Positions 10,615 through 30,195 of a stretch of 41,902 nucleotides of DNA are shown piece by piece. Origin of the DNA: a virus. Lineage: Duplodnaviria > Heunggongvirae > Uroviricota > Caudoviricetes. The stretch lies in IMG/VR virus record IMGVR_UViG_2778261315_000003. One strand, written 5' to 3'. The translations under genes and the position numbers were made by a program. The notes under the pieces are model-generated. The model worked only from the letters and a program-made list of their open reading frames with translations, searched no databases and was not told the DNA's origin. Numbering within the stretch: position 1 is the stretch's first letter; each line of letters begins with the position of its first letter.

Positions 10615-10645
10615 AAACAAGGCCGCGAAAGCGGCCTGTTTGATC
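10612..10645. terminator. bidirectional terminator between convergent genes
   Basis: GGCCGC-GAAA-GCGGCC hairpin flanked by A-run on one side and T-run on the other. Confidence 0.55.
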
Positions 10646-11495
10646 ACTGTGCAGTTTTCGCTGATCGATTTTCAGCTCTAAATTCAAGAACCGTTTCAAT
10701 ATTTCTTTCCTTCAGCATATCAATAACATTTTTATTCATTTGACTATCACTGGTTAATAACTGGTAAACGTTGCTTCTCTCTTTATCAGAGTTTTCTTTA
10801 ACAGCTGCTTTGCATGCCAAATGCTTATTGAAATTTTCTACATCGCTAGTACAGGAATTTACGGCTGCTGATGAAATATCAGACGCTGAAGAAACACCGT
10901 CATCCAAACGTTTTATAGCATTTTCTATACATGAGTTAAGGGAATAAACGACAACTGAGCGATACCCTTCAGACGCACACCATTCTAAATTTCTTGAAGG
11001 ATCGAGTGGTTTTACTTCGCTGGATTGAATTAACTTGTCAAAAACTGACTTATATTCAATCTGTTTTTTATCTATAGCCCATACTTCAGTAGCTGATTTA
11101 TAATTCCCCGTATGCCTATTAACATCAAATCCATGTTTTATAAGCAAATCTGCCCATGAAAGATTTATTGATTCATTGTTATGAGGCCATTTTCCTGTCA
11201 GAACCGCCCCCATAGACCCCATATATCCGCCATATGATGGTATAGCACCATGGCTCAGTAACTTCTCTGCAACCACAGGGCAATTAATTACATAAGAGGC
11301 GTAAAGCCCATTCCATAAAGCCCCTCTATAGTAATCGCCACGATTAGGTTCTTTTAAGTCGATAGCCTTTGATAATTGTTCGCACGTTTTGCATGCATCA
11401 AAGTTATCCTTATTGCATTGCAATGAACTGGCAGCTGTAGGATTTACAGAGACTATTGAAAGCACTATGCCAAAAAACAAATTTATTTTTTTCAT
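10644..11495 (-). CDS. AT-rich secreted protein of unknown function (moron), possibly ankyrin-repeat-like
   Basis: 283 aa; N-terminal signal peptide MKKINLFFGIVLSIVSVNPTAA; visibly lower G+C than neighbours; segments ...AEKLLSHGA... and ...ADLLIKHGFDVN... loosely fit ankyrin consensus; start 1 bp after the gp16-like stop. Confidence 0.7.
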   Translation of the reverse strand: MKKINLFFGIVLSIVSVNPTAASSLQCNKDNFDACKTCEQLSKAIDLKEPNRGDYYRGALWNGLYASYVINCPVVAEKLLSHGAIPSYGGYMGSMGAVLTGKWPHNNESINLSWADLLIKHGFDVNRHTGNYKSATEVWAIDKKQIEYKSVFDKLIQSSEVKPLDPSRNLEWCASEGYRSVVVYSLNSCIENAIKRLDDGVSSASDISSAAVNSCTSDVENFNKHLACKAAVKENSDKERSNVYQLLTSDSQMNKNVIDMLKERNIETVLEFRAENRSAKTAQ

Positions 11496-11496
11496 C

Positions 11497-14400
11497 CTAT
11501 TTCATCTGCTCTTCAACTTTATTTAGTAATGGTGATATCGCCCACAGATTCTGAAAAGGTAGCATTTTACGGACAGCGTGGGTTTGCTGGCTGTCAAATT
11601 CTCCGTTAAGTACACCATTTGCAACCGTCGCGGCATCACCGCCAAGATCAAAGGTAGGACCAAGTAAAGCACCAATAGCATTACGACTCTGAAACCTTGA
11701 TACCGGAGGCGCACCAAACATCGCGCCAAGACCAAACCTACCGCCGCTTATGTTCTCAACGGTATTCAGCGGCTCAGAGAGCCAGCCAAGCATTCCGCCC
11801 CGGTCGATCCCCTCTTTCACAAGGTTATTCCAGCTGTAGTCGATATCGCGACCGCTTAACTTCTGTTTCATCATATAGACCATTGAGCCAAGCGCAATCG
11901 TGCCAAGCGCACCAAGATAGAATGCAGCATCGCCCTGCTGGATACCAGATACCAGCACCCTGTTATGCTGTGCGAAGATAAACGTTTTGAACTGCGTGAT
12001 CATCTTCCAGCCTTCTTTACTAAAAAACAGCGGTGTATCACCTACGCCAGGCGTTACAATCACTGAGTCTACATCTTTCAGCACTGCAGACTGGAAAATC
12101 TCTCTAGCGAAACGGTCATCCCACAGATGACTATGCCCGGTTAACAGCCCGTCCATATCCTCTCCGTGCTTCCCGAATTGCTCCCCGATTCGGCGCAGAA
12201 CATCTTCATTGATGCCGACCTGTGCCATCTTCCGCATTTCACTTTTGGAGAGCGTGCCACCAGCAGAAACTTGGCGAGCCGCGTCAAGTATCCTCGACTG
12301 CACTATCATCCCAGACCATGATTTAAGTGCGCTGTTCCACTGATTCATCAGCGTCCAGTTACCGAATTTCTGCGTCATCCAGTTCAGACCTCGCTCAGCG
12401 GCGCTTCTCCGGCTATAGGGGTCAGTAAGATCCGCTATAGCCTTTGTACGCGTAGACAGGACATAATCAAGCCCAACGGCCATTTCTCGCAAATCCCTGG
12501 TTGCAATTTTCACTGAGTCCATATTTTTAAGCATGCTTACCATTGGTCCGAGAGATTTTCTCAGGCCATGCTGCATCATCGGTCGCATCAGATCAGTTGC
12601 AGCGGAGACGGTCATTCCACCAAGCAAACGGAGGAAGTTAATATTCCTAGCAACTCGCCCGGCACGAACAAAGAAACTGCGTGGATCTTGAGGTGCGCCG
12701 TAAGTACCAAGCAGTCGGTCACGCATAGCCGTAATATCCCTAATATCAGCCTCCCGTTGCTTCTCAAGAGCTGCACGTCGTTTAGGTGTTTTAGCCTCTT
12801 TTATTAGCCGGGTATATTCCTCACTAACCTGACGGATTTGCTCCCCCATATCTTTACGGCCAAACTGCGCAGTCAGCTCAATTTCTGGTGCCACCTGCCG
12901 GAGATAACTTTCCATGATGTAGTTAACATCTGATTCAAGAAAATCTTCTATACGCTCATCAGGAATAAGCAGCGTTCGGCTTTTAGTGAAACCAGCCCGA
13001 CCAACGAGTCTCTCTGGGATAATATCGGCTGGTACAAGCCCGGAAGGTGCGCCTATTATTTTATTCACGATCTCGTCAGCAGCGTCCTCTGCTTCCTCTC
13101 GGGATAGAGGCTCCATCTGCTTCAGTGCTCGCTCGCGGCTTGCATTCAGCCTTGTGGTTGAATTTGTCCGTTTTTGCAGTCGGCGAAGCTCAGAACGATA
13201 TTTCCGTGGATTATCCAGCAACTCCATATGGCGCTGATAGACAGGAAGCTCACTCTTTGCCTGCGCTATATCATCAAGGCGTGTTTTAAGGTCAGAGCTT
13301 TCTTTCATCATTCTTGCCTGAAGTTTTTCTGATAAAGTCTCGGCCAACTCTTTTTCTATTCTTGTAAGACGCGCCTGTGTGTCAGTCTCCTGAGATATAA
13401 GCTTATTTCGTTTATCCAGTTCTTCCATGAGTAGAATTTTTTTACCAGACCATTTCTCCGCTTCAGCGATTTCACTAGCGAGAGCATCAGCGCGCGGTGC
13501 TGATTCCTCTGCAGTTTTTAGCAATGAATTTATCTTTTCAATTCGCTGACCTGCTTTGTCAGCACCTTTGGCACTAATCCCTTGTATCCAGTTGGCAATT
13601 CGCCCTCTGAATTCAGTGCGGTCGGAAAGTATCTTATCGAACTTATAAATGCGGGGAAGATAACTTTTCGCCGTCACGACATCGATATCCTCAGGAAGGA
13701 TCCCCAGTTCCTGCATACGGGCTTTTGTGGTCTCGAAAATGGGGCGGATTCTGGCGGCTGCTTGTGAAACCTCAGGAATATCACTCTGATCACCACGGCG
13801 CATAGCCATGCCAACAGCTTCATTGAAATCAATAAAGTTCATCCTCTTCACGCCGCGGGCGCTAACAGATTTGCTGTACTGCTGGTAAGCATCACGAGTA
13901 GCTTCCATCTGCTTATAAAGCATGGCGTCGTATTGCTTAATCTTAGTCTCGACTGCCGTAAACGTAGCCAACCCCTCATCATTTTTGGCGAAGAAATAGT
14001 TATTTTCGGCAAGCTGCTGGTTAATCTGACGGGAAACAAGAGATGGTGATTGCGCCAAGCGGCCAGCAGGAGTGACACTCAACGTTTTGTTAGCAAGTCC
14101 AAGTCCAGCAAGCTGTTCCTGATCGAGTGTGGTATTGAAAACCTGAGCTGCACCAATGCTTTGAGGAGAATCCATACCTCGCAAATGATTACCTACTGAG
14201 TTAACCACTGCCTCGCGCGCGCTAGGTCCAGCAAGTAGCTGTGCACCAGCACCAAGGATCCCACCAACGAGAGCATCAACAACAACGTTCGATACGCTCT
14301 CCATCGGTGAGCGAGCTTCCTGAGTGGCCTGCAATGCGGCCTCTGAAGCAACACTGCCAGCAGCATTGGCTAAAGCAAAACGTCCGGCTGTTTCTGCAAT

Positions 14401-14886
14401 ACGACCGCCACGAACGACAGCGCCGAACGGAATAAACATAGAAATCGCATTGAATGGATCTGCTAATCTCATTGCTACAGAAGAGACTGTACCAGCAAAT
14501 CCCAAGCCTGAATTGTATTCCATGTCAGCTCTCTGCTGATCGATTCGATGTTTAATTGCCATTGTTTCTTCATGCGAACCGGAGTTGATAAACGAATCTG
14601 CAAAATCTTCATAGCCTTTAATATCTGCTGCATCGTTATCAAATGGGTTATATCCTTCAACCCTGTCAAACTGACTGAAAGGAGCACTGGCAATAAAGCT
14701 ACCCAGCGTGTTATCTATACGAAATGCTGCTTGTCTAGACCTTTGAACGCGTTGATCACTGGTAAATGGGTTCACAGCAGAAAGCAAAGAAGGTGTTTCC
14801 ATATAGAAATTACTGTCATCAGGTGCTGCTATTTGCTGAATATCCTCGCCAAGCAACTCTTTAGGATCCTGTTCATATATCGGCAT
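11497..14886 (-). CDS. internal virion (ejection) protein, T7 gp16-like
   Basis: 1129 aa; position after gp15-like gene; C-terminal region (..MITQFKTFIFAQHN.. / Gly-rich end) resembles T7 gp16 C-terminus by recall. Confidence 0.7.
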   Translation of the reverse strand: MPIYEQDPKELLGEDIQQIAAPDDSNFYMETPSLLSAVNPFTSDQRVQRSRQAAFRIDNTLGSFIASAPFSQFDRVEGYNPFDNDAADIKGYEDFADSFINSGSHEETMAIKHRIDQQRADMEYNSGLGFAGTVSSVAMRLADPFNAISMFIPFGAVVRGGRIAETAGRFALANAAGSVASEAALQATQEARSPMESVSNVVVDALVGGILGAGAQLLAGPSAREAVVNSVGNHLRGMDSPQSIGAAQVFNTTLDQEQLAGLGLANKTLSVTPAGRLAQSPSLVSRQINQQLAENNYFFAKNDEGLATFTAVETKIKQYDAMLYKQMEATRDAYQQYSKSVSARGVKRMNFIDFNEAVGMAMRRGDQSDIPEVSQAAARIRPIFETTKARMQELGILPEDIDVVTAKSYLPRIYKFDKILSDRTEFRGRIANWIQGISAKGADKAGQRIEKINSLLKTAEESAPRADALASEIAEAEKWSGKKILLMEELDKRNKLISQETDTQARLTRIEKELAETLSEKLQARMMKESSDLKTRLDDIAQAKSELPVYQRHMELLDNPRKYRSELRRLQKRTNSTTRLNASRERALKQMEPLSREEAEDAADEIVNKIIGAPSGLVPADIIPERLVGRAGFTKSRTLLIPDERIEDFLESDVNYIMESYLRQVAPEIELTAQFGRKDMGEQIRQVSEEYTRLIKEAKTPKRRAALEKQREADIRDITAMRDRLLGTYGAPQDPRSFFVRAGRVARNINFLRLLGGMTVSAATDLMRPMMQHGLRKSLGPMVSMLKNMDSVKIATRDLREMAVGLDYVLSTRTKAIADLTDPYSRRSAAERGLNWMTQKFGNWTLMNQWNSALKSWSGMIVQSRILDAARQVSAGGTLSKSEMRKMAQVGINEDVLRRIGEQFGKHGEDMDGLLTGHSHLWDDRFAREIFQSAVLKDVDSVIVTPGVGDTPLFFSKEGWKMITQFKTFIFAQHNRVLVSGIQQGDAAFYLGALGTIALGSMVYMMKQKLSGRDIDYSWNNLVKEGIDRGGMLGWLSEPLNTVENISGGRFGLGAMFGAPPVSRFQSRNAIGALLGPTFDLGGDAATVANGVLNGEFDSQQTHAVRKMLPFQNLWAISPLLNKVEEQMK

Positions 14887-17636
14887 TATTTGCCCCCTGC
14901 GTATATATTGCTCGGAAGGTAATTGGCTGAACCATAACCGAATGGTTTGGTCAGATCTGGAGGAGTATATCCATCTTTATTGCTGAACTGCGGCAGCGGA
15001 TTGCCTTCTCTCCGCACTCTAGCCTCATCAACACGCTGTTGCTGGAACTGAATGGTTTGCCTGTACATTGGAGATGTCAGCTGATCCGGCTTGAAACGAA
15101 CAGGGAGACCATTTTCTCCAATATAATTTCTCGGTTCTATCGCTCCGTTTGCGTCAGGCTGTAAAACCATAACAGCATAACTCCTATCCCTTGCCGTAAG
15201 GCCATCAGAAACAAGTATTAAGTCCGTATCACTGCGAGGACCGCCAAAGGATTTTGATTTAAGCTCGTGTTTTTCCTGCTCCCACTGCCCCTGTATCCAG
15301 TTACCAGCACCATTATTTACTCCGTACAATGCCTCAGGTGCATACTTCATAACCTCTGCTTTGCCATTAACTGTAGAAACTCCCCAGGTGGTTCTGATCA
15401 TGGCATTGGTCATTTTCTCAGCCTGTTCTGCATCGCCACCTGTCTGTACAAAGTTAGCATCGTAAATTGTCTGGTAATCTCGCTGATAGGCCGCATTTGA
15501 TTTTCCTGGATCGGTAATATCCGGAGACCACGAACCAAAGGAAGTCAGACTGCTGGCGTTATTTTGTGCAGCAGTTGCCCTCGCCGCGACATATTTTTTG
15601 TCTCGCATGGCAGTGGAAAGCATCTGTTTCATTCGGTCATCCTGTTGGAAAACCTGGCTGTAAGCCATATCAACAGCCTTATCCTCCGGCACGCCAGCGC
15701 GGGAATAATCGTAAACCTTGCCGTAAAATGCCATCGTACTTTTATCAAGTGTTGCCGCTGCCGCCGGATTATTATCGAATAACTGACCGTAGAATTTTGC
15801 CATCGGGACAACCAGCGCAGGATCTCTTGATGTTGCTCCACTGTTAAGCATTGTTTTAACCTGAGTTGGTATCATGCCGCTTTTAGTTGTGACGGTGACC
15901 AGTGTATTGATGCTCTGCGGATCAGATATGGAAAACGAAGGCGCGATATCCTGCGCGAAATAACGGTCTACCGCTGCCTGATTGTTTTTGTCGTTCGGGT
16001 CCAGCGGGAAGTTATTTTGCATTGAAGACACGAACCTGTTTCTTCCCTGCTGAATCTCCCACTCCCTATCCATCTCTTTAAATTTGGCCTGCATTTTCTC
16101 CCAGCGTTGCTGGTTAGCTGCAAATCCAGGAGTGTTTGGATCCTGTGGACGTAAACGTTCAAGAATGTCTTGTCGTCCTTCTGGAGTGAGGTCTTTAGCG
16201 GCACCAATGACACCTCCATATTGTATCTGCGCCTGCATATCCTTCCACTTCATAGCGCCAATGCGCGGACCATTGGCCCGGATAAAATCGTCCTCAGAAG
16301 GTAACTTCTCAGGTTTCAATCCTTCATCAAGGGCTGAATATGCATCTTTAACTACGGTGCTAAGCTGGTCCGCATACTGCTGGCGGTACTGATTTCTCAG
16401 CTCATTAGCCTGCCTCAATGCCTGTATTTGCATTTGAGGGCTCATAGCGTCAAATGCCGCATTGCCCGTATAACGCTTAGGTGAATCAAGGTTAGTTAGA
16501 CCAAGGGCTGCCGAGATACCAGTTTCAAGCTGTTCGGTGCTATAAGGCATACTGCCATTTTCGTGTTTAATAATCCCAGCACATAAAGCAGCTAGTGTCT
16601 TTGGGTTAGAGATATCAAGCTGATCATTCTCCCCAACACCAAGCTCACTACACAATGCCCTAATATAAGCATCAGTATTATTACCATCACTAGCCGGAGC
16701 ATAGCGATTAACAATCTCGCTAACGGTGTCATAGCCTTGACGCTGGTAAGACAACATATTTTTACCCAACGCGCGGATTCCATGCTCAGGGGTAGCAAAC
16801 GTTGCAAAACGTCCATCGCTACCGATCTGACCTTCCCACGGGTTAGATTTGCTCGCTTCAATATTACCAGGGTTATTATTACGTAAACCACGAGCATCCA
16901 ATGAATTACCATGTGATATTGCACGACTCACACCATCAAGATCCCCTGGCTCTCCATTAACCTGAAGAAACTCGTTGTATTTTTGAGCGATATTTCCTAT
17001 CCATGCTTGCTGCCCCATTTGTTCCTTGAGCTGAGTTTTCTGCTGAACACGCCACTCATCAGGAAGCCCATGCGCATCAGCGTATTGATCAATAGATTCA
17101 AATCGCTGCTTGGCTAAATCGACAAATGCTTGGTTATCGCTATATAGCCCCGCAGACTGAGTGACAGCCAATGCATTTCCTGACAAATACGTTTGATCTT
17201 GGAATTGCTGAAACTGCCCAACTTCATATCGACGTGCCTGATTGTAATAAGACTGCATAGACTGCTGGAGTTGAAAGGATAATTTATTCCTTTCCTCACT
17301 TTCAGGAATTGAGCCTAATAATGCCTGAGCCCTTTCCTGCATATTTTTCATAACAGCGTCACTCTGACCAAGAGCGTTTTTACCCTGTTTAGAAATCAGC
17401 CCATTTTCAGGGTTGTTAATCTGGTCATCTGCAAATTGGTTAAATTGCAGTAACGCCTCCTGGGCCATAGCAACATTCGCTTTCTGCCTGGCTTCACCAT
17501 ATGCCACCGCATACTGATCTGCGACATTCGCCAGCACCTGACCTGCTTGAGGAACATCGAAGGTCTGAAAACCACCGGTTTGCACACCACGACTTTGCAC
17601 CTGGCGTCCGGATGTAGTAGGAACAACAGGCATCAA
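14886..17636 (-). CDS. internal virion protein, T7 gp15-like, with central conserved motif block
   Basis: 916 aa; gene order gp14-gp15-gp16; central block RGLRNNNPGNIEASKSNPWEGQ...FATFATPEHGIRALGKNMLSYQRQGYDT looks like a conserved enzymatic or binding domain. Confidence 0.65.
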   Translation of the reverse strand: MMPVVPTTSGRQVQSRGVQTGGFQTFDVPQAGQVLANVADQYAVAYGEARQKANVAMAQEALLQFNQFADDQINNPENGLISKQGKNALGQSDAVMKNMQERAQALLGSIPESEERNKLSFQLQQSMQSYYNQARRYEVGQFQQFQDQTYLSGNALAVTQSAGLYSDNQAFVDLAKQRFESIDQYADAHGLPDEWRVQQKTQLKEQMGQQAWIGNIAQKYNEFLQVNGEPGDLDGVSRAISHGNSLDARGLRNNNPGNIEASKSNPWEGQIGSDGRFATFATPEHGIRALGKNMLSYQRQGYDTVSEIVNRYAPASDGNNTDAYIRALCSELGVGENDQLDISNPKTLAALCAGIIKHENGSMPYSTEQLETGISAALGLTNLDSPKRYTGNAAFDAMSPQMQIQALRQANELRNQYRQQYADQLSTVVKDAYSALDEGLKPEKLPSEDDFIRANGPRIGAMKWKDMQAQIQYGGVIGAAKDLTPEGRQDILERLRPQDPNTPGFAANQQRWEKMQAKFKEMDREWEIQQGRNRFVSSMQNNFPLDPNDKNNQAAVDRYFAQDIAPSFSISDPQSINTLVTVTTKSGMIPTQVKTMLNSGATSRDPALVVPMAKFYGQLFDNNPAAAATLDKSTMAFYGKVYDYSRAGVPEDKAVDMAYSQVFQQDDRMKQMLSTAMRDKKYVAARATAAQNNASSLTSFGSWSPDITDPGKSNAAYQRDYQTIYDANFVQTGGDAEQAEKMTNAMIRTTWGVSTVNGKAEVMKYAPEALYGVNNGAGNWIQGQWEQEKHELKSKSFGGPRSDTDLILVSDGLTARDRSYAVMVLQPDANGAIEPRNYIGENGLPVRFKPDQLTSPMYRQTIQFQQQRVDEARVRREGNPLPQFSNKDGYTPPDLTKPFGYGSANYLPSNIYAGGK

Positions 17637-18199
17637 TAACCTCCTATTTTGAATCGGGAGTCAGAATTCATAAAACCTGAGTTAGATAACATTGGCGTGT
17701 TTCCTTGCTTACTAATCGGATTGATACTTCCGCCACCCAACTTATATGCACCGTATGCTTTTAGTGGTGCCGTTAACAAAGTGCTGGTCATCGATGATTT
17801 AGCAGCCGACTGAGCAGCAGCCCCCTGTGCCTGAGCATTCATTCCCTGAACCTGATACCCATATGCCTCACGCTGAGCATTATTCACTGTCGTTAACGCA
17901 TCAAGAGTGCCGAACTGAGCATTATCCGCAAAAACGTCAAGAGCTGTTCCGCTACTTAATTCCGCACCGGTAGCCCCCATAGTGGCCGCCGCAGTGCCTG
18001 AGCGTTGACGCATTTCACGACGACGCTGATCCGCTTCAATATTCCCACGATTGATTGAATCCTGTGCCTGAGCTTCAGCAATTTCAGCATTCCGATCAGC
18101 TATGGCTGACTGGTATTTTGCCTGCTTGCTCTGGCTGTACATTGACGCGGCTGTGGATGCCACTGTGACGGCAACCAAAGCGATGGCTGGGTTACACAT
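17633..18199 (-). CDS. internal virion protein, T7 gp14-like
   Basis: 188 aa starting MCNPAIALVAVTVASTAAS..., Ala/Gln-rich; composition and start resemble T7 gp14 (MCWAAAIPIAISGAQA...). Confidence 0.65.
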   Translation of the reverse strand: MCNPAIALVAVTVASTAASMYSQSKQAKYQSAIADRNAEIAEAQAQDSINRGNIEADQRRREMRQRSGTAAATMGATGAELSSGTALDVFADNAQFGTLDALTTVNNAQREAYGYQVQGMNAQAQGAAAQSAAKSSMTSTLLTAPLKAYGAYKLGGGSINPISKQGNTPMLSNSGFMNSDSRFKIGGY

Positions 18200-18663
18200 T
18201 ATTTTCTCTCCATGTGAAATCTGTGGAAATTAAGACCAAGAGCACCATAAGGCGCGGCTTCTTCAAGCCTGAATCCAAGCCAGTGCAGCCATGCTTTGGC
18301 AACATGGTTTCGCTCGTCGACGTAGTTTTCCAGGCGCGGATAAACTGCCAGCATCTGCTGCAATACAGGGCGGCAGTGGCGAAGAAATGTCTTCTGATAT
18401 TTTTCAATACGGCTGGTTCCGATCAGCCAGGGCGTACCATTGCCACCGATCATTGACGCCGGAGATACACCAAACATGGTTACCAGTTCTCCGTTCGCGA
18501 ACCCTGACCAGGCCATAGTCGCAGTGCGCAGACCAACACGCAGCGCATCTTCGGTAGTCATCAGCGATACCGCATACAGTTCGTCAATATCAGCCTGACG
18601 AACATCCGGCAAAATCATCTGAAGATGCTCTTCGGTAGCGGGAATAATTTGAACGTCGATCAT
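18199..18663 (-). CDS. virion-associated hypothetical protein (gp13 position)
   Basis: 154 aa ORF tightly packed between tail-tube and gp14-like genes. Confidence 0.45.
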   Translation of the reverse strand: MIDVQIIPATEEHLQMILPDVRQADIDELYAVSLMTTEDALRVGLRTATMAWSGFANGELVTMFGVSPASMIGGNGTPWLIGTSRIEKYQKTFLRHCRPVLQQMLAVYPRLENYVDERNHVAKAWLHWLGFRLEEAAPYGALGLNFHRFHMERK

Positions 18664-21134
18664 CAGAATCCCCCAACAGTAAGGCGAGGAATAACGGCAA
18701 GAACAGACAGCGGCAACGGATCAAGCTGACGGATTTTTACACGTCCGTTTTTGCCCCAGTTACTGTCCAGTTTCACTTCTACTTTTCCGGTAGCATCATC
18801 AACAGGATCATCGTAGAACTCGAATTCACGCTGTGGATATTCGTACCATTTACCGCCGGGCGTAGTCGCCCAGATGCCGCGACTGGCATTCACAACCAGA
18901 GTAACGGAGGGGATCACCTGTTTTTTGTCCAGCAGCGTTTCCTGTCCGTTAATGTTGATATCCAGTGTTTCGAATTCAGCAGTTATTGGCAGGCCGATGT
19001 GCACTACAGCCCCCGGAGATTCCAGCGTGACGGCACCTCCGGAAACCACTTTCTGTGGTTCCACGTTCGCATCAGAGAGAATGTTTACGGTCTGACCTTC
19101 AAGATGAGACAAGCCGCCAAATGCCCGGCGCGCCATCTGCCAGTTCGTGGTGGCCACATTCCTGAGGGATGGCGGGACGTTCCTGTTAGGACGAACCACT
19201 ACAGCGGTATTGCTGGTTACAGAAATAATGTCGCAACGTAATTCTTTTGACACTTCATCGCCAGTATCAGGATCCGTTCCGGTATAAGGGAACTGTAGTT
19301 GCGCGCCGACATCACTACTGGTGAAGTACGCACCACCAGAAACACTGATTGTATATTCCGCGCGGTAATCCCATTCGCCAGAACCACCAGTGATGATCAT
19401 CGTTCTGTCAGACGTATTTCTTCCATCATAGCTAAGGCCAGAATCAACAAAGAAAGCATCTTCATCGCTGGTAAATAAACGGCTGGACAGTCTCTCGATG
19501 TATCTCACTGTTTGCCCGTTAACGGTTCGGTTAACGACGAAATACACCGCATCTTCATTGCCTTCGCTGATACTGCATGTGCTTTCATATTTTCCGGTAC
19601 TGGATTGTGGTGCCCATGCGAAAACCTGCTGATCACGCAGATAGGTCATTACCAATAATTTACCGTCATCACGAATGCAGAATGCGCTGGAGTAAGGGAC
19701 AATCGAGAAGCACCAGTCAACAATGCTGTGCTTCTGAAAAAGATGATTGGCAAGGATAGTAAGGTCGTTCCCCTGATAGCCGTCAACATCGAATGAGTAG
19801 GCCAGATCACGGACAACACTGCCTTTCTCCTGGACGAACAGAGCAATATTCGCCACAGCAATTGGTGGGACGTTGCTTGAGCCATTTGATCCCTGAGAGC
19901 TGAATGCAAATGATGATGGGGTTAACACTTTGTTCTGGTCGCCGGTGATGACGTACTCACCTCCGGAAGTCAGCGCCACCAGCGAACCAACATCAATCAG
20001 GTGGCGGATCTCATTAACCTGACGCCCGGCATAGGTGTAGATAATTCTGTCGTCATCCTGCGTAGGATTGCTTTTGCCAAAATCCTTATAATCCCCGGTA
20101 CGGCTGGCCCAGATAGTCTGAGGGAACGCAGTCGATGCGGCGAAGTAAAGACGTTGTTGATAATAAACAACAGTGCCAGGATAACCATTAACACTGTTCC
20201 AGGCATATTTAGCCCATTTATAGCTGGCATTATCCTCGCCAACGACCTGCGAAGGGATATAGGAAATCACCTCGGCAGTTGCAGTAGTGCCGTTTACAGC
20301 AGTGATACGGGCAATGCCAAACCCACTGTGCAGATACTCCCACTCAATGCCAGTATCATCATCACCGGATCCGCCCCAGCCATCCCATGATGTGCCTTCT
20401 GTATGCGAAGGGCGCAAAGTGCCTGTTTTGCCTGCTGTAACGGCGCGATAGTAGTTACTGTCTGCACGGCGAATATCGCCAATCGACGTACTCTTACTGG
20501 TTTCCCATACCGGCACTGAATCCACTGCAGGCTGTTCCAGATAGAACAATTTGCCTACCTGCTCCGCGCCAAAAATAGAGGCGCTTGCCGTTAACGTAAT
20601 TGCCCCGGTGCTGGCGCTGGCATAAACCGTCACTGACTCGTCAATATTGATATCTTCAAATGGCCCGTTCTTCGTTACCACATCAACCAGTTGCCAGTTG
20701 TCATGCGCGTAGCGGCGCAACTCTTTCGGCGGGTATGCCGGGTGAACCAGCGTAAGCACGTCGGCGCTTTGCGTGAATTTAATTCGGAACAGATCGGCTT
20801 CAGTATATGGCGTGGCAATTTCATAAATAACATTGCTGCTGTTCAGCACCAACGCACCATCTTTGATAACGCGCATGTACTGGTGCCCGAACTCCAGAGC
20901 ATAGGTCTGAACCGTCGAGAACTGGAACGGGATCAGGCGGCATTTCCGATTTGGGTATTTGGCGGCACCGATAAAACGCGTACCAGGTCGATTCTCAACG
21001 CCGCCATACTGCCGCACGATAAAGTTATCGCACTTGCGCAATGCCACCTGGTACTTCGCCATGTCGATACGACCGTACAACGACGGTCCAATCTCACCAC
21101 CGGCAAAGCTGGGCTGGATCCAACTGATAGCCAT
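18663..21134 (-). CDS. tail tubular protein B / nozzle (T7 gp12-like)
   Basis: 823 aa beta-rich protein directly after gp11-like adaptor; size and position match podovirus nozzle. Confidence 0.6.
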   Translation of the reverse strand: MAISWIQPSFAGGEIGPSLYGRIDMAKYQVALRKCDNFIVRQYGGVENRPGTRFIGAAKYPNRKCRLIPFQFSTVQTYALEFGHQYMRVIKDGALVLNSSNVIYEIATPYTEADLFRIKFTQSADVLTLVHPAYPPKELRRYAHDNWQLVDVVTKNGPFEDINIDESVTVYASASTGAITLTASASIFGAEQVGKLFYLEQPAVDSVPVWETSKSTSIGDIRRADSNYYRAVTAGKTGTLRPSHTEGTSWDGWGGSGDDDTGIEWEYLHSGFGIARITAVNGTTATAEVISYIPSQVVGEDNASYKWAKYAWNSVNGYPGTVVYYQQRLYFAASTAFPQTIWASRTGDYKDFGKSNPTQDDDRIIYTYAGRQVNEIRHLIDVGSLVALTSGGEYVITGDQNKVLTPSSFAFSSQGSNGSSNVPPIAVANIALFVQEKGSVVRDLAYSFDVDGYQGNDLTILANHLFQKHSIVDWCFSIVPYSSAFCIRDDGKLLVMTYLRDQQVFAWAPQSSTGKYESTCSISEGNEDAVYFVVNRTVNGQTVRYIERLSSRLFTSDEDAFFVDSGLSYDGRNTSDRTMIITGGSGEWDYRAEYTISVSGGAYFTSSDVGAQLQFPYTGTDPDTGDEVSKELRCDIISVTSNTAVVVRPNRNVPPSLRNVATTNWQMARRAFGGLSHLEGQTVNILSDANVEPQKVVSGGAVTLESPGAVVHIGLPITAEFETLDININGQETLLDKKQVIPSVTLVVNASRGIWATTPGGKWYEYPQREFEFYDDPVDDATGKVEVKLDSNWGKNGRVKIRQLDPLPLSVLAVIPRLTVGGF

Positions 21135-21739
21135 CAGGACAACCTCGCAATGGTAAACTCGTCAACCGGTGGCTGTGGTTCCTGTGATTCATTCTGGCTA
21201 TGCGAGCCAGCACTAAGAATCACGCGATTGTACATATTGAGGGCAAACGTACCGAGGTCTGCATTCCCAGTCAGCGCCATGTTAATAGCTGCCGCAAGAC
21301 GCCAAGCCAACGCCTCCATAAAAATGGCATCAAACATGTTCACATCTGTAACGCGAGAGACATACTTGAGCCATGCCTGCGGCTGGTCTGTGTAGATCAA
21401 TTTTCCTGTTCCGTTGGTGTCTGCACCAACTTCGTACTGAACACGCATTGCTGCTGTTGGATTGCGTACACCAGGAAGCATAATTTCAGTAATGCGCAGA
21501 CAATCGGACGGGTACTGATACGCATATTCCCAGTCAGGCGGTGGATTGCTCGTATCTGCAAGCGCCACGCGTTTGGTAGCAAAGTTCCAGTCAAAATCAG
21601 AAAGCACAGCATCACGGCAGGCCTCAAAGTGCAGCGAACATTCCCCCGCTTCCTTGCTGGCTTCCGTCAGGCTGTTAATGCTGCGGCTATTGCCAATATT
21701 GGACAGCGCACGATTGCAGATCTCTACTACAGAGGCCAT
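21134..21739 (-). CDS. tail tubular protein A / adaptor (T7 gp11-like)
   Basis: 201 aa; N-terminus ICNRALSNIGNSRSINSL resembles T7 gp11 VNDILASIGEPPVSTL by recall; precedes nozzle gene. Confidence 0.6.
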   Translation of the reverse strand: MASVVEICNRALSNIGNSRSINSLTEASKEAGECSLHFEACRDAVLSDFDWNFATKRVALADTSNPPPDWEYAYQYPSDCLRITEIMLPGVRNPTAAMRVQYEVGADTNGTGKLIYTDQPQAWLKYVSRVTDVNMFDAIFMEALAWRLAAAINMALTGNADLGTFALNMYNRVILSAGSHSQNESQEPQPPVDEFTIARLS

Positions 21740-22068
21740 TACTCACCCCCATTGCCGTACAGAGTTTCAGCCGCTGATTTTTCTACATCCCCGGAAACAG
21801 GAGCGATCGCCATATCAGTGATCTGCAGATCGGCGCTGCGATTAACACCATCGTCAGTTTCTCTGGCAGACAGGCCTCGAATAACAGCCTTTGCAGTTAT
21901 CATCACTTCTGTTCCGACGCCCTGAGGTTGCGCCTTCAGCTTATTCAATGTGTCGTTATTAAGAGTGATGCACAGCCCCCACGGGTATTCATCACGAGTT
22001 CTGGTTTCTCCGCTCTCATCCTGGTAGCTGTCAGTGCCGGTTTTGAGGTTTACGAGTTCCATATACAC
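21739..22068 (-). CDS. hypothetical structural-module protein
   Basis: 109 aa ORF in head-tail operon, translationally coupled to the adaptor gene. Confidence 0.45.
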   Translation of the reverse strand: MYMELVNLKTGTDSYQDESGETRTRDEYPWGLCITLNNDTLNKLKAQPQGVGTEVMITAKAVIRGLSARETDDGVNRSADLQITDMAIAPVSGDVEKSAAETLYGNGGE

Positions 22069-22112
22069 TCCTGCAATAAAGGGGCCGAAGCCCCTTGTCG
22101 GATTCGCGAGGC

Positions 22113-22457
22113 TTACACGCCCAGTTCTTTACGCTTATCTGCGATCTTCTCGCGGAGCGTTTCGGCTTTAGCGTTATGGTGTGGCTTCTCGTTAAAGAGC
22201 AATTCGTACTCTTCACGGAGCTTATCCAGTTCACCATCATCTGACACATCGTTGATGATTTTGGTGCTGGTTGCTGCCATAGACACCTTTCCTGCTACAT
22301 TTGCTTTTGCCTGTCTGGCTGCATCGTTAACAGGTTCCAGTGCGCTACCAGGCTCACCTTCGTATTCGATTTCTGCCCCCTCAGGCCACAGAGTGTTATG
22401 GATATGAGAGAGGCGCAGAACGCGGTATCTTGGTTTCTCACCTGACATCGATATCAC
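22113..22457 (-). CDS. hypothetical structural-module protein
   Basis: 114 aa ORF, charged C-terminus; start overlaps previous gene stop. Confidence 0.45.
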   Translation of the reverse strand: MISMSGEKPRYRVLRLSHIHNTLWPEGAEIEYEGEPGSALEPVNDAARQAKANVAGKVSMAATSTKIINDVSDDGELDKLREEYELLFNEKPHHNAKAETLREKIADKRKELGV

Positions 22458-22458
22458 C

Positions 22459-22896
22459 TTAACCAGTTACTTTTGAGCGGATCGGATACGGCGTATTGGC
22501 ATCAACATCAAGACTGATACCCGCAGTGAATTCGCCAGCCGTTAGTGGGCCAGTTGCGACGGAGTAGTTAACACGCAGATATCGCAGAACACCGGCTGGC
22601 ACCTTTGCAGAAACAACTCGCTTACCTGCTGTCAGGGTGGCCTTTGCCAACGCACCACTATCATAAATAGTGGTCCAAGAGCTGTTATTCTCACTCGTCT
22701 GCAACTGGATGTTTACAGTTGCATCACCGCTTGCCGCGGCGGCTGTGTTAACCAGCGCCCAAAACTCAAGCGAGTAACCCACGCCGATATCACGACGTTT
22801 TCCGTCAATTGGACCGAGATCGATTACGTCAGTAGAAGCCGCGGTATTCGTAACCGCCTGAGCTTCGGAGAACATCAACAGTTTGTCGGTGATCAT
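22459..22896 (-). CDS. possible capsid decoration / accessory protein
   Basis: 145 aa Thr/Ala/Ser-rich beta-type protein right after the major capsid gene. Confidence 0.45.
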   Translation of the reverse strand: MITDKLLMFSEAQAVTNTAASTDVIDLGPIDGKRRDIGVGYSLEFWALVNTAAAASGDATVNIQLQTSENNSSWTTIYDSGALAKATLTAGKRVVSAKVPAGVLRYLRVNYSVATGPLTAGEFTAGISLDVDANTPYPIRSKVTG

Positions 22897-22947
22897 CTTC
22901 TTTCTCCATTAGTGGGTCTGTTACGACCCACAGGTTAATAACAGGCG

Positions 22948-23940
22948 TTACACCACGCGGGCTTCTGTTTCCAGAAGCGCATCAGTTTCACGGATTGGTA
23001 CACCACGGAATGAAGTCCACCACTCGCCTTCTGTCTCTTTTACGCTGATCGCCAGAGATGTTTTCTCCAGAGATTGCAGATCAAGAGCCTGGCCTACAGT
23101 GCGGTTCATGTAGAACACCGGGCGACCCATGCCACGATTTGGAATGCGATGCAGTGCTTTAACCATCAACTTCGCAATATTTGCGGCAGAGGAAGGTTCT
23201 GAAAGATTGCTGACATCGATGTTTGCAATGCGAACAACATAACGCCAGTCACGCAGAGCAAGTCCGTTGTCCCATTTGTAATGGGTACGGTAGCCTTCGT
23301 ACTTGCCGCCATTCGCATCTTCCAGTGTCACCTGGCCTTTATCTTCCATCTGGATGCCAGCCTTCTGCCCTTTCGGGAAGATGCCATGCACGGTGTTTTC
23401 GCCCCACACCACTAACCAGATTGAGGTGTTATCTGTACCCGTGCCACCAGCATCAATGATGTTCTGAGCATTACCCGCAGACAGGCTGGAATAGCGGGAG
23501 GACAGTCCCATAAACTGCTGAGGGTTAACGCTGGAATCACCATAAAACAGTGTCTGCGCCATCTGCTGATTCATCGCTTCAATAAATGCGCGGTCTTCAG
23601 ACAGGCGGAATTCGGCGGTATTACCGTTCAGATCAGCCAGTGACTTATCGACTTCAGCATAGGTTTCCAGCATGCCAACGGAATCGGTGACCTGCACTGT
23701 GGTTGATTTGCTTGGCTGTACACCATAGTTCAGCAAACGCCAGGTAGCTGAAGGTAAACCAGAACGAATGGTGGTTCGGTGTCCGGTAGGAAGGTTCCCT
23801 TCGACAAAAGGCATATCCTGAAGGATCGGGTTAGTTTGACCGAGAAGCTCGATAATCTTATCGACTTTCCCGTTTGGATCGACGCGCTTACCCCAGTCAG
23901 CCAGCGTTAGCGCAGTTAAGCCTTTAACAGCCATTGTCAT
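22948..23940 (-). CDS. major capsid protein
   Basis: 330 aa; position after scaffold, before decoration and tail genes; HK97-fold-like size. Confidence 0.75.
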   Translation of the reverse strand: MTMAVKGLTALTLADWGKRVDPNGKVDKIIELLGQTNPILQDMPFVEGNLPTGHRTTIRSGLPSATWRLLNYGVQPSKSTTVQVTDSVGMLETYAEVDKSLADLNGNTAEFRLSEDRAFIEAMNQQMAQTLFYGDSSVNPQQFMGLSSRYSSLSAGNAQNIIDAGGTGTDNTSIWLVVWGENTVHGIFPKGQKAGIQMEDKGQVTLEDANGGKYEGYRTHYKWDNGLALRDWRYVVRIANIDVSNLSEPSSAANIAKLMVKALHRIPNRGMGRPVFYMNRTVGQALDLQSLEKTSLAISVKETEGEWWTSFRGVPIRETDALLETEARVV

Positions 23941-23948
23941 TTCCTCTC

Positions 23949-24650
23949 TTATTTGCCATAGAGCACTTCGGCCGCACTACGCTGGCCTTCATTACCACCG
24001 GTGACCATGCCATCTTCAGACATCGCCTTTCCGATTTTCACGAACGTTTTGACCAGATCAGGGTGATTACCCAGCCCGGTGGTGTTCAGATATTCTTTGA
24101 GTTCAGGTGTCCCGAACTGGTCAAGCGCACGCTGTGCGGCGCTAAGGTTAGAAATCAACTTGTCGCCACCGATTTCTTTGTCAGCTTTTACATCCGCAGC
24201 CCACTGCTCGGTTGTTTTCTGCCAGGCTTCTGCCTGGCGCTGCTGAACACCTGCCAGAATCTTCGGATAAGCATCAACCAGCTTTTGCGCTTGCTCGTTG
24301 GTCAGGTTTAGTTCTCGCGCCACCGGCTCGAATTCCTTCAACGCTTCTGTATCCAGCTCTACGCCTTCGGCAGCCTGAAACTCGTACTTCTCAGGCGCAC
24401 CCTCTGGTTTATCGCCGTCCTTTTTTTCATCCTGCTTATCGTTTTCAGGCTTTTTGTCATCAGCAGGTTTATCGCCATCAGCAACAGGTTGTGGCTTATC
24501 ACCTTCCGGTTGTGATGGATCACCAACTGGAGCAGGGTTATCACCTGCAGGCGCTGACGGTTCTGACGCAGCCGGAGCTGCTCCACCATCGACTGGTTGC
24601 TCATTGCAAAGACGGCGATACAGCAAACGCTCAAATAAATTCATGATCAC
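23949..24650 (-). CDS. scaffolding protein
   Basis: 233 aa; acidic Pro/Asp/Lys-rich low-complexity N-terminal half, helical C-terminal half; between portal and capsid. Confidence 0.6.
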   Translation of the reverse strand: MIMNLFERLLYRRLCNEQPVDGGAAPAASEPSAPAGDNPAPVGDPSQPEGDKPQPVADGDKPADDKKPENDKQDEKKDGDKPEGAPEKYEFQAAEGVELDTEALKEFEPVARELNLTNEQAQKLVDAYPKILAGVQQRQAEAWQKTTEQWAADVKADKEIGGDKLISNLSAAQRALDQFGTPELKEYLNTTGLGNHPDLVKTFVKIGKAMSEDGMVTGGNEGQRSAAEVLYGK

Positions 24651-24943
24651 TCCTGTTCACTGGCCTCTTTGGCCATCTTCAAATACTGTTCAGGGCAATG
24701 CGCCATAACGCGCTGAAACAGTTCCAGCGCCAGATTGCGTTGCCCCTCATTAAATGCCATTGCCATAGCGTCCATCGGTGAGATAGCGGAAAACACACGG
24801 CCTTTCTCCAGCACCGACCAGACAACGCGACGCCCCTGTTCACTGCTCATGACAAAGCGAATGTCATCAATTTCACGCTGTGCCATGTCACGTTGCTTAC
24901 GGGCGTTTTCTTCTTTCAGTTGATCATCTTCGTAATCTGTCAT
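24647..24943 (-). CDS. hypothetical small head-module protein
   Basis: 98 aa acidic ORF coupled between portal and scaffold. Confidence 0.45.
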   Translation of the reverse strand: MTDYEDDQLKEENARKQRDMAQREIDDIRFVMSSEQGRRVVWSVLEKGRVFSAISPMDAMAMAFNEGQRNLALELFQRVMAHCPEQYLKMAKEASEQE

Positions 24944-26619
24944 TGTGATTGCCCACCCTGACCACTAACTGCATTCGCCATAGCTGACAAAACACTCGGA
25001 TCCGAAGTTTTAGCTTCGCTTAGCGTCTTGGCGCCCTGTGCCGCCGCCATTCCCATCGCCATCATTTGTTGCTGCTGTTGCTGCTGTGCCCGTTGCTGGC
25101 GAGCCTGCTCAACCTGTTCCTGCGGAACAATGACGGTTGGAGACACTCCGGACATATCAGCGAATGCATCGATCGCCTGATCAACATTGAGTTTGTCGAG
25201 AGCTTCTGGTTTCGCTTGCGCAAGTTGACCAATGAAGTTAACCGTGGACGCCAGACTGGACAGGCCGATAGACTTCTGCGCCTGAGCCATGACGGAAATG
25301 TATTCGACCTTCAGGGGCATGCCTTCCATCGCGTCAGGCGGTGGCGGCAGCATGTTTTTACGCACCATCATCGAGAAAGCGCGGTCAATGAGAGGATTAA
25401 GACATTCGTCGTTCAGACGCTCCAGAACCGGCCCCAACATCAGAAGCTTTTCTTCTTTCATTTCGATCACTGCTTCAACAGGCATCGAGCGGGTATTGAT
25501 GTTCTGCAACATCATGAACAGATCGACAAAGTAGGCGCTGTTAATGATTTGGCGAGTGTCCTGAATGTCTGCTACCAGATCTGCTGTACTGGGGTTAACC
25601 AGATAAGCAGGCCTGAAACCATCCTGACCAGTAATCTGATCGATATACGTGATGTCGCCAGGAAGAAGGGAGGCGCGCTGATTCTTGAGGGAAGTCGGAG
25701 CAACCATCGGCGGATTGGTGGCTTTATCAATCAACTGCGACTTGCGCTTCTGGAGAAGCTGCAATGCCTTAACAGGTCCAAGCGCCAGCATACCCGGGCA
25801 TGATGATCCATAAACATCTTCGCCGTTAACTTCCCAGCGCGGAGCCATAATTGGAAACTCATCGAATCCGGACTCACGCAACAACTTGTCGTTATCGCCA
25901 CCAACCTCGTAATAAACCGATTTGAATGGCTTGTTCTTGCTATCCAGCTTCGATGTATCGCGGTCAATGTTCGGGTAAACCGAATGCATCACTTCAATCC
26001 ACTTCTCGTAGGTGCCGCTTTCCCACATGCTTTTTACGGATTCGCTGACGTTATTTAGCCCGAACTCCTGAACAAGCTGACGAACAGTCATAGAGAACTT
26101 GCGAAAACAGGTGTCCACACTGCCACGAGGTGAGTTAGCCAGGTAGTAACTGCCTATCGGGAATGGCATTGTGCGAATGATGTCATCGTCATCCTCCAGT
26201 ACCGCCATTGCACCAGTGCTGTATGTGCCGAGGCTTCCGTATAACTGCGGCAGCGACTGATAGAGATTCGACTTATTGAACATATCGTTCATGCGGTTCT
26301 GCACCGCCTCAAGCCACAACTTAACAGGGCCATAATCCATCATTTCAGGATCTGGCGTAGCCAGGCGAAACCACGGACGCGCGGGGCTTGTGATGCCTGA
26401 CATCATGCCGCTGGCGAGAGTTCGCGCCGCCATAGTCCCGGTCGAATCAATAATGCGTGTATTGCGTCGATCGTTACGGTTGACCTCAGAAGTCAGAAAG
26501 CGGGAACCACGCGGGTTGATGTAATCACTCAACTCGCGCCAGTGCGGCTCGAACGACTGACGCTCGCTTTCAAGTTGTGCGAACTGTTTGTTCAATCGCT
26601 CTTTAGTTGTTTCCGCCAT
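24940..26619 (-). CDS. portal (head-to-tail connector) protein, T7 gp8-like
   Basis: 559 aa; C-terminal QQRAQQQQQQQMMAMGMAAAQ tail resembles the T7 gp8 C-terminus (QQKMAQQSMQMGMDNG) by recall. Confidence 0.85.
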   Translation of the reverse strand: MAETTKERLNKQFAQLESERQSFEPHWRELSDYINPRGSRFLTSEVNRNDRRNTRIIDSTGTMAARTLASGMMSGITSPARPWFRLATPDPEMMDYGPVKLWLEAVQNRMNDMFNKSNLYQSLPQLYGSLGTYSTGAMAVLEDDDDIIRTMPFPIGSYYLANSPRGSVDTCFRKFSMTVRQLVQEFGLNNVSESVKSMWESGTYEKWIEVMHSVYPNIDRDTSKLDSKNKPFKSVYYEVGGDNDKLLRESGFDEFPIMAPRWEVNGEDVYGSSCPGMLALGPVKALQLLQKRKSQLIDKATNPPMVAPTSLKNQRASLLPGDITYIDQITGQDGFRPAYLVNPSTADLVADIQDTRQIINSAYFVDLFMMLQNINTRSMPVEAVIEMKEEKLLMLGPVLERLNDECLNPLIDRAFSMMVRKNMLPPPPDAMEGMPLKVEYISVMAQAQKSIGLSSLASTVNFIGQLAQAKPEALDKLNVDQAIDAFADMSGVSPTVIVPQEQVEQARQQRAQQQQQQQMMAMGMAAAQGAKTLSEAKTSDPSVLSAMANAVSGQGGQSQ

Positions 26620-26633
26620 TTCAATGACTCCGG

Positions 26634-27531: not shown

Positions 27532-27542
27532 AAGATGAGATC

Positions 27543-29528: not shown

Positions 29529-30121
29529 TGATTACCATCCTGACGTTCTTTGAGTCGCTTCCTGGCTGCTGCTATGCGATCAGCAATTGTCACATTCACA
29601 TTAACATCCAGACGTTCTTTGAACGCGTTGACATCAACATGCTTACCAATCAGCTCAAGGTTCTTCACCTTGTCAGGCCATTTAATTTTTTTGAGGATTG
29701 TCTCTATCGAATCCTCGTTCATGTTCATGATGGTCGACGACAGATCAAAGCCACTAAGCGTAGTGCGCCAGATTTTCGGCCACTCACGGATTGGTTTAAG
29801 GCTCCCATCGTCGTTGAGGATGTCGATCACGTCCATCTGGTCGATCTCCACCAGGCGCATGAGAACGTAATCAGCACTGACGCGCATTCGTTTGTTGCGC
29901 TCCTCCATCAACTCGGCAATCCGTTTTTGAATGCGTTCATCGCGCATCATGACACTGGCTTTAACTGCCGCTGTATTTGGGGAGAATCCTGCGTTAATCG
30001 CTGCCTGAGTCTGGTTTTCAGGCGTTTTGATGTATGACTGACAATAAGCCTCCTGCATTGCTGTTAGTGGCTTAAATTGCGTTGATTTGCGTTTATAGGT
30101 TTTAGGTTCAGCAGGCATCAT
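29525..30121 (-). CDS. terminase small subunit
   Basis: Motif AYCQSYIKTPENQTQAAINAGFSPNTAAVKAS typical of small terminase HTH family; start placed at internal Met (ORF extends to 30199). Confidence 0.65.
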   Translation of the reverse strand: MMPAEPKTYKRKSTQFKPLTAMQEAYCQSYIKTPENQTQAAINAGFSPNTAAVKASVMMRDERIQKRIAELMEERNKRMRVSADYVLMRLVEIDQMDVIDILNDDGSLKPIREWPKIWRTTLSGFDLSSTIMNMNEDSIETILKKIKWPDKVKNLELIGKHVDVNAFKERLDVNVNVTIADRIAAARKRLKERQDGNQ

Positions 30122-30195
30122 AACCACCGTGGTAATTGTTACCGTTGTGGTAATAATACCATGCAAAATAAAGCCGCCATAGTTGGCGGCAGTAT

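Follow-up and report, generated by a model that had tools for sequence, protein, structure and literature searches.

This study concerned a 41,902-nucleotide stretch of viral DNA (IMG/VR record IMGVR_UViG_2778261315_000003, Caudoviricetes; the whole stretch is referred to here as the window) and, within it, the block of virion genes at positions 11497-26619, which an initial annotation had described as a T7-like gene series in an integrase-bearing temperate phage. The block is, with high confidence, the late operon of a temperate podophage of the phiV10/epsilon15 (Uetakevirus-like) type, whose prophage occupies the 3' end of guaA on an Escherichia coli chromosome. Judged by sequence comparison, the block departs from phiV10 in one respect, the exchange of its distal ejection cassette by recombination. 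Neither the lineage nor the T7-like synteny of its tail and ejectosome genes is new, and the mosaic first noted in the window is the architecture that defines a familiar and very common group of temperate podophages of enterobacteria.

Structure and gene order of the late operon

The block corresponds to exactly 13 consecutive, tightly packed open reading frames (ORFs) of the minus strand in the ORF list. A consensus scan of the coding strand found no strong terminator-like hairpin (at least six G-C pairs) inside it, while a terminator-like hairpin directly follows the next ORF, which specifies a protein of 283 amino acids (aa); the block is therefore a single uninterrupted late (virion) operon, read from 26619 to 11497. 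In the order of reading, its genes and the terminator are as follows.

24940..26619, minus strand: portal protein, 559 aa (T7 gp8 equivalent; epsilon15 gp4 homologue); Pfam PF12236 Head-tail_con, 2.3e-187, with T7 gp8 also in PF12236
24647..24943, minus strand: 98-aa protein of unknown function (epsilon15 gp5 homologue, no T7 counterpart); phrog_528, 66% identity to epsilon15 gp5
23949..24650, minus strand: 233-aa scaffold-position protein (T7 gp9 position); phrog_458 'protease'
22948..23940, minus strand: major capsid protein, 330 aa, epsilon15 gp7 type (T7 gp10 position); PF20911 GP7, 2.1e-149
22459..22896, minus strand: Bbp16-family capsid cement protein, 145 aa (no T7 counterpart); PF21190, 5.4e-46; RefSeq homologue named 'Bbp16 family capsid cement protein'
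22113..22457, minus strand: 114-aa protein of unknown function (epsilon15 gp9 homologue); phrog_590, 40% identity to epsilon15 gp9
21739..22068, minus strand: capsid staple protein, 109 aa (epsilon15 gp10 homologue); 43% identity to epsilon15 gp10 and 98% to phiV10 p13; RefSeq homologue named 'gp10 capsid staple protein'
21134..21739, minus strand: tail adaptor or tubular tail protein A, 201 aa (T7 gp11 equivalent); PDB 8CK1 'Connector Protein', 4e-26; 9EFK orf17; phrog_394 'tail protein' and phrog_9239 'tail tubular protein'
18663..21134, minus strand: tail nozzle or tubular tail protein B, 823 aa (T7 gp12 equivalent); PDB 8CK1 'Tail Nozzle', 4.6e-216; 88% identity to epsilon15 gp12
18199..18663, minus strand: internal virion protein A (IVP-A), 154 aa (T7 gp13 equivalent); phrog_308, 2.4e-62, with T7 gp13 also in phrog_308, 1.1e-42
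17633..18199, minus strand: internal virion protein B (IVP-B), 188 aa (T7 gp14 family; predicted outer-membrane pore of the ejectosome); PF24072 T7_gp14, 7.5e-8, 32.9 bits against a cutoff of 27
14886..17636, minus strand: 916-aa ejection protein at the gp15 position, with an embedded Enc34-type lysozyme domain (about aa 248-400)
11497..14886, minus strand: 1129-aa gp16-family ejection protein without an N-terminal transglycosylase domain; phrog_342, 777 bits
10620..10637, minus strand: intrinsic terminator-like hairpin, a 7-pair stem (6 G-C) followed by a T-run, directly after the 283-aa ORF; closes the late operon

The relative order of these genes equals that of T7 gp8 to gp16, and the proposed series of portal, scaffold-like, capsid, adaptor, nozzle and gp13/14/15/16-like proteins was borne out. 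The adaptor and nozzle genes are adjacent, in the T7 order, and the nozzle gene is directly followed by the gp13 (IVP-A) and gp14 (IVP-B) homologues. A virion-borne muralytic domain, also a trait of the T7-type tail hub and ejectosome, is present as the Enc34-type lysozyme domain of the 916-aa protein. Chance is not an adequate explanation of this order, because four positions (portal, gp13, gp14 and gp16) are direct family matches and the adaptor and nozzle are tied to T7 via epsilon15. The spike, which the initial annotation had included in the series, lies elsewhere: the tailspike gene is at 4169-7144, and the last ORF of the block specifies the gp16-family protein.

Relationship to phiV10 and epsilon15, and prophage borders

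What had been suggested as a resemblance in spirit to epsilon15 and phiV10 turned out to be a genome of that very type. By megablast, the block shared 98.4% DNA identity with the isolated phage EC.W1-9 (PP445227) across 95% of its length. Over its proximal 8.4-9.2 kb it was about 98% identical to phiV10, TL-2011b, phiv142-3, ZX5, PAS61 and two O157 typing phages, 9 and 10. By blastn, window positions 17845-27543 were 97% identical to phiV10 and 74-75% identical to epsilon15, with values of 97-98% to phiV10 from the portal to the gp13-like gene, and a comparison of annotations showed the gene order to be colinear with phiV10 (NC_007804) and epsilon15 (NC_004775) across the whole genome. The portal protein was 99% identical to phiV10 p07 and 81% identical to epsilon15 gp4, the capsid protein 99.7% identical to phiV10 p10, and the adaptor 85% identical to epsilon15 gp11, for which a RefSeq note records an HHpred match to T7 tail tubular protein A. 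Characteristic traits of the Uetakevirus group were also found, namely an epsilon15-type GP7 capsid protein with a Bbp16-like cement and a gp10 staple, a tailspike with the epsilon15 gp20-type particle-binding domain, a P4-type integrase, a helix-turn-helix (HTH) repressor, RecT genes, a DnaT-like/lambda-P pair, and an att core identical to phiV10 attP.

The T7-like features of this group have been described before. Hardies et al. 2016 (PMC4819975) placed T7, P22, N4 and epsilon15 in a 'transient tail homology group', and reported T7-like synteny of the tail and internal-protein genes in the epsilon15 group, in which gp12 was assigned to tubular tail B and gp17 to IVP-D. Their epsilon15 and T7 tubular tail B groups gave a strong match between hidden Markov models (E<1e-10), a homologue of IVP-C in the epsilon15 group was not confirmable by sequence, and the capsid and terminase of the epsilon15 group clustered with siphoviral ones. 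The review of Swanson et al. 2022 (PMC8954989) lists epsilon15 among phages with gp14/15/16-like operons, and notes that muralytic domains shift between gp15-like and gp16-like proteins. The initial annotation had named a fall of the structural proteins into siphovirus or myovirus families as the outcome that would count against it, and the portal, tail and internal proteins did not fall there.

The prophage borders were located by comparison with E. coli DLL7555, which is 100% identical to window positions 1-4200 and in which the equivalent prophage sits between guaA and yfgI. The two features that define integration are given below.

1838..1854, no strand assigned: 17-bp att core ATTGAGTGGGAATGATT (as read on the minus strand), at the prophage/host junction; the same 17-mer is found at the other prophage end in DLL7555 and once in phiV10 attP
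40652..41902, minus strand: tyrosine integrase with a P4-type arm-binding domain; PF13356 (Arm-DNA-bind_3), PF00589, PF22022

At the other end of the DLL7555 prophage the core (L003 3312-3328) covers the final codons of guaA together with its stop codon, which means that integration rebuilds the 3' end of guaA from phage sequence. The copy at 1838-1854 means that window positions 1-1837 are host DNA (yfgG, yfgH and yfgI). The right end of the window is the start codon of the integrase gene, about 0.2 kb before the other att copy; the Pfam matches to arm-binding and integrase domains agree with the P4-type integrase reported initially. Related prophages were found in 618 of 5426 complete E. coli genomes. 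The exact mosaic of the window occurred in none of the 5426, the best of them covering 89%, and the closest overall relative was the DLL7555 prophage, with 99.4-99.9% identity outside the swapped segment.

The scaffold-position protein

The 233-aa protein (23949-24650) sits at the position of the T7 scaffold gene, and we consider it more probable that it is a scaffold than a protease; its composition and predicted all-helical structure resemble those of scaffolding proteins. Should it instead be a prohead protease, the capsid would be matured by proteolysis, unlike that of T7; this is rather unlikely, although phrog_458 is labelled 'protease' and NCBI records carry the names 'peptidase' and 'protease'. 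Family searches found no Pfam or NCBIfam family for the protein, peptidase families included, its N-terminal ~85 residues are of low complexity and rich in Pro, Ala, Asp and Lys, and it has a single invariant His with no obvious catalytic triad. An AlphaFold2 (AF2) model was all-helical with zero strands, at a low confidence (pLDDT 47) that makes it not decisive; as the model was too poor for a fold search, its secondary structure alone was used. Known prohead protease folds differ from such an all-helical, strand-free prediction. The protein also lies outside the T7 gp9 family, PF05396. The 'protease' label, then, looks unsupported. As a side observation, this name has been propagated through GenBank, RefSeq and PHROGs.

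Integrity of the prophage and the limits of its T7 likeness

A defective prophage remnant, in which the T7-like order was kept but no particles are made, is quite improbable. The att copy proximal to the integrase gene does lie beyond the right end of the window, but all structural ORFs are full-length and 98-100% identical to those of EC.W1-9, the lysis, terminase, integrase and repressor genes are intact, and so is the att core at 1838-1854; on the intact genes, the near-identity to EC.W1-9 and the intact att core this reading was rejected. Moreover, the ORF lengths all equal those of EC.W1-9, a plaque-forming podophage, which implies that the gene set makes viable virions.

Several points nevertheless weigh against the reading of the block as a Uetakevirus-like late operon in the T7 order. 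BLASTN identity multiplied by coverage, calculated in one direction, was 0.57 to phiV10, so that similarity amounts to only about 57% of the prophage length, and 0.33 to epsilon15. By ICTV convention, members of a genus share about 70% whole-genome nucleotide similarity; epsilon15 and phiV10 nonetheless share one genus. Formal placement of the prophage in the genus would therefore be provisional; EC.W1-9 and TL-2011b, too, stand outside any formal classification. Inducibility of this particular prophage is putative. On the side of T7, BLASTP of the structural proteins against gp6.7-gp17 gave no convincing counterpart match, the sub-0.05 matches being a spurious one between portal and gp16 (E 0.004) and a weak one between the 916-aa protein and gp15 (E 0.04), and nothing else. 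The capsid protein, scaffold-position protein, adaptor, nozzle and spike have no Pfam or PHROG family in common with T7.

The likeness to T7 is thus one of profiles, folds and gene order, and pairwise sequence comparison cannot show it. The families held in common are those of the portal (PF12236), gp13 (phrog_308), gp14 (PF24072) and gp16 (phrog_342). The initial interpretation, a T7-ordered virion module in a temperate, integrase-bearing podophage, is supported, with the correction that capsid, scaffold-position protein and spike are not of T7 families. Models of the T7 types, that is, the Gp10A-like capsid (PF21703, the family of T7 gp10A, as distinct from PF20911 of the window capsid), the scaffold (PF05396) and the tail fibre (PF03906), had no match among the window proteins, while the T7 proteins did match them. 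The T7 Pfam models PF17212 and PF25675 likewise had no match to the window proteins, and the link from epsilon15 to T7 for the adaptor and nozzle is that of the literature and the RefSeq HHpred note. A literature search for PDB code 8CK1, the structure of the adaptor/nozzle homologues, gave no paper.

T7 itself has the same order of portal, scaffold position, capsid, adaptor, nozzle and gp13-gp16, with the receptor-binding protein last. It differs in several respects: its terminase genes are downstream of the fibre gene, whereas those of the window are upstream of the portal gene; the window head genes include four ORFs that are absent from T7 (cement, staple and two small ORFs); the window spike gene is detached from the late operon; and T7 carries its muralytic domain, of the SLT type, at the gp16 N-terminus, whereas that of the window is an Enc34-type lysozyme inside the gp15-position protein. 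T7 has a phage RNA polymerase and no lysogeny, while the window phage is temperate and without RNA polymerase. The absence of a phage RNA polymerase, noted initially, held, in that all four ORFs of at least 800 aa were assigned to other functions (nozzle, 916-aa protein, 1129-aa protein and tailspike).

These differences bear on whether the phage could be a true T7-like (Autographiviridae-type) phage that secondarily gained an integrase and a lambdoid early region, and so a new temperate relative of T7. The portal, gp13, gp14 and gp16 families and their order are shared with T7, and kin of the C-terminal half of the 1129-aa protein occur in Pelagibacter and Mesorhizobium T7-like phages. However, there is no single-subunit RNA polymerase, the capsid is of the GP7 and not the T7 Gp10A type, the spike is not of the T7 fibre family, the terminase genes are upstream of the portal gene, and DNA identity to phiV10 is 97-98%. 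A temperate T7 relative is therefore highly improbable, and was rejected as contradicted by the missing RNA polymerase and the near-identity to phiV10. Equally slight is the probability that the 1129-aa ORF (11497-14886) is a tail spike or fibre, as its size, its last place in the block and its position after the gp15-like gene might suggest, and this was rejected because the protein belongs with T7 gp16 to phrog_342 ('internal virion protein'), has a gp16-like C-terminal match, and because a separate ORF, at 4169-7144, has an epsilon15 gp20-type N-terminus and a tail-spike PHROG.

The swapped ejection cassette

Comparison of the Uetakevirus-like window genome with the DLL7555 prophage showed that a 7.1-kb segment, 10640-17727, differs. 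The blastn alignment breaks at 17728, which places the left junction of the cassette inside the gp14 gene at about 17727. In this segment phiV10, epsilon15 and DLL7555 encode a distal ejection set of three proteins, of about 837-842, 600-634 and 824-918 aa; those of phiV10 and epsilon15 belong to phrog_992, phrog_1145 and phrog_684 (epsilon15 gp16 is phrog_1145 and gp17 is phrog_684). The window instead encodes two proteins, of 916 aa (phrog_1044) and 1129 aa (phrog_342), and a 283-aa moron, and homologues of epsilon15 gp16 and gp17 were absent from it by BLASTP and hhalign.

The two-protein set was recovered from other epsilon15-type genomes. EC.W1-9 carries 916-, 1129- and 283-aa proteins that are 99.2%, 99.8% and 100% identical to those of the window, while its tailspike and several early genes differ. 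In TL-2011b (NC_019445) the set consists of gp37 (905 aa) and gp38 (1004 aa), with 29% and 31-42% identity to the window proteins. A two-protein set also occurs in the Klebsiella prophage-like phages ST512-KPC3phi13.3 and Kp4865-1, the Klebsiella proteins being of 914 and 1129 aa, with 82% and 92% identity; in TL-2011b and the Klebsiella phages the ORF after the two-protein set is different from the 283-aa ORF or absent. Among complete E. coli genomes, at a coverage of at least 80%, both cassettes were common, the window type being present in 117 genomes and the three-protein type in 313. Although present in GenBank records, the swap has probably not been discussed explicitly in the literature.

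The 916-aa protein, for which the ATG at 17633 is the probable true start, has only its N-terminal ~560 aa in common with epsilon15 gp15 (hhalign 8e-126, 42-44% identity). An AlphaFold2 model built with 27 homologues (mean pLDDT 77) was predominantly helical and contained a compact domain around residues 250-380. When the model was compared with 350,542 PDB chains, the top four Foldseek matches were all T7 gp15 (9JYY, 7K5C, 7EYB and 6YT5; E 1.4e-4 to 4.7e-3), whereas hhalign of the family against T7 gp15, as against epsilon15 gp16, was not significant. The model matches are suggestive of homology to T7 gp15, and give the first fold-level hint, not a conclusive one, that gp15 of the epsilon15 group is a homologue of T7 gp15, a relationship beyond the reach of sequence methods.

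Alignment of the 1129-aa protein to phrog_342 covered profile positions 192-1227 (777 bits), compared with 4-1227 (1355 bits) for T7 gp16; as it starts only at position 192, the protein belongs to the gp16 family but lacks the N-terminal transglycosylase. A weak C-terminal hhalign match to T7 gp16 residues 1096-1241 (E 3.6e-4) included a common QFK[ST]F motif, and hhalign of the family against epsilon15 gp16 and gp17 was not significant. The family is widespread among Enterobacterales prophages, with remoter relatives in Vibrio podophages of about 32 kb, TL-2011b (gp38), and Pelagibacter and Mesorhizobium T7-like phages.

The gp14-like protein carries the trace of the exchange. In alignments, its residues 1 to ~157 are of the DLL7555 type, and the last ~30 match EC.W1-9 alone, the C-terminal tail ...TPMLSNSGFMNSDSRFKIGGY being common only to these two. 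The N-terminal 160 aa of the EC.W1-9 protein are, however, of the phiV10 type and not the DLL7555 type. The same tail on different N-terminal backgrounds implies that it was co-inherited with the 916/1129 cassette, and is consistent with a contact between the tail and the gp15-like protein. We tentatively propose that at least two interchangeable ejectosome cassettes, one of three proteins and one of two, may alternate on a near-identical chassis of portal, tail and gp13, with the gp14 tail as the specificity interface between pore and tunnel. If this is true, the tail marks the interface of the outer-membrane pore and the periplasmic tunnel proteins, and cassette exchange is a natural system in which to define the contacts that an ejectosome needs. 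A modular ejection cassette with its junction inside gp14 could guide experiments on the assembly of podophage ejectosomes.

The remaining member of the cassette follows the gp16-like gene.

10644..11495, minus strand: 283-aa secreted, Cys-rich protein, phrog_6118; at the end of the late operon and part of the swapped cassette

This protein has a Sec-type signal peptide, MKKINLFFGIVLSIVSVNPTAASS, and many Cys residues, and the GC content of its ORF is 0.37, against 0.47-0.51 in the neighbours. It had no Pfam, NCBIfam or PADLOC match, phrog_6118 being its only assignment, and its features suggest that it is probably a secreted moron and not a virion protein. Its translation is coupled to the end of the gp16-like gene, and the operon terminator comes after the ORF.

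Proposed assembly and ejection

What the analysis shows are the protein families, the order of the genes, the near-identity to phiV10 and EC.W1-9, the borders of the prophage and the lysozyme fold; assembly roles and a mechanism of ejection may be proposed by analogy with the biology of T7 and epsilon15. Host RNA polymerase would read the whole operon into a single transcript, beginning with the terminase and portal genes and ending at the terminator at about 10620. The portal, the helical scaffold-like protein and the epsilon15-type, HK97-fold capsid protein would form the prohead, and the cement and staple would reinforce its shell. The adaptor and nozzle would make up a short tail hub, closing the portal and holding six tailspikes through their epsilon15 gp20-type N-termini; the spikes themselves would be supplied from a gene about 4.3 kb beyond the block. 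The gp13-like protein may aid assembly of the internal core, in which the gp14-, gp15- and gp16-like proteins would be stored. After binding to O-antigen, the core proteins would be ejected to form a channel across the envelope, with gp14 as the outer-membrane pore, the 916-aa protein as a periplasmic tunnel whose embedded lysozyme domain would cut peptidoglycan, and the 1129-aa protein as the inner-membrane part.

Tailspike and accessory genes

Between the 1129-aa gene and the tailspike gene lie the moron, the operon terminator, and some 3.5 kb in which accessory genes (Bro-N, a DUF2335 membrane protein, and others) occupy both strands.

4169..7144, minus strand: tailspike (gp17-position equivalent), outside the block; phrog_1171 'tail spike protein', E=0

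Residues 1-219/230 of the tailspike, the particle-binding domain, are 76% identical to phiV10 p25 and 70% identical to epsilon15 gp20, and the C-terminus is a Peptidase_S74 intramolecular chaperone domain. Its receptor-binding part (4169-6454, minus strand) showed 99% identity to a prophage record, 'YDC107_2', and 74% to phage YZ1. The receptor-binding parts of the phiV10 and epsilon15 tailspikes differ from it, as do the RecET alleles and some early genes. The O-antigen-modifying gene of phiV10 and epsilon15 (an O-acetyltransferase in phiV10) is absent after the window spike gene, where 3771-4169 was examined.

An insertion of about 0.86 kb (7598-8453), found in neither phiV10 nor the DLL7555 prophage, contains an ORF at 7620-8348 (minus strand; 242 aa; phrog_6762), the product of which resembles, at its C-terminus, the zinc-finger regions of Lar-like proteins, HNH proteins and endonuclease VII. 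Neither this ORF nor other accessory ORFs had a PADLOC, Pfam or NCBIfam match.

Terminase, early and lysogeny regions

Upstream of the portal gene are the terminase genes.

28053..30199, minus strand: terminase small and large subunits; PF03592; phrog_2; 97% DNA identity to phiV10

Between terL and the portal gene lies a tRNA-Arg(TCT) gene (27268-27344, plus strand), in antisense orientation relative to the late operon. The gene is annotated by RefSeq in the DLL7555 prophage, a tRNA-Arg occupies the same place in the Klebsiella phage, and the phiV10 record instead annotates an overlapping 83-aa hypothetical ORF, p04.

Of the early functions proposed for the phage, the RecET system stood, as a RecT gene adjoins that of a PDDEXK (DUF3799) exonuclease, and two others stood in part. 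In the O/P-like replication module a lambda-P family protein was found, but the protein that precedes it has a DnaT domain and is not of the lambda-O family. In the CI/Cro-like switch an HTH_3 repressor was identified by Pfam, but the 'Cro' was positional only, a 76-aa ORF without a family match. The recombination module (37408-39107, plus strand) consists of the separate exonuclease and a 293-aa RecT, an allele unlike those of its relatives: the DLL7555 prophage has a YqaJ-family exonuclease with RecT, epsilon15 a separate RecE-like exonuclease with RecT, and phiV10 a fused RecE-RecT.

A final observation concerns EC.W1-9, which the preprint describing it called safe as being integrase-free. 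Its GenBank record annotates an integrase at 34301-35551, and that region is 97.9% identical to window positions 40652-41902; a temperate phage of the phiV10 type is thus being proposed for therapy.

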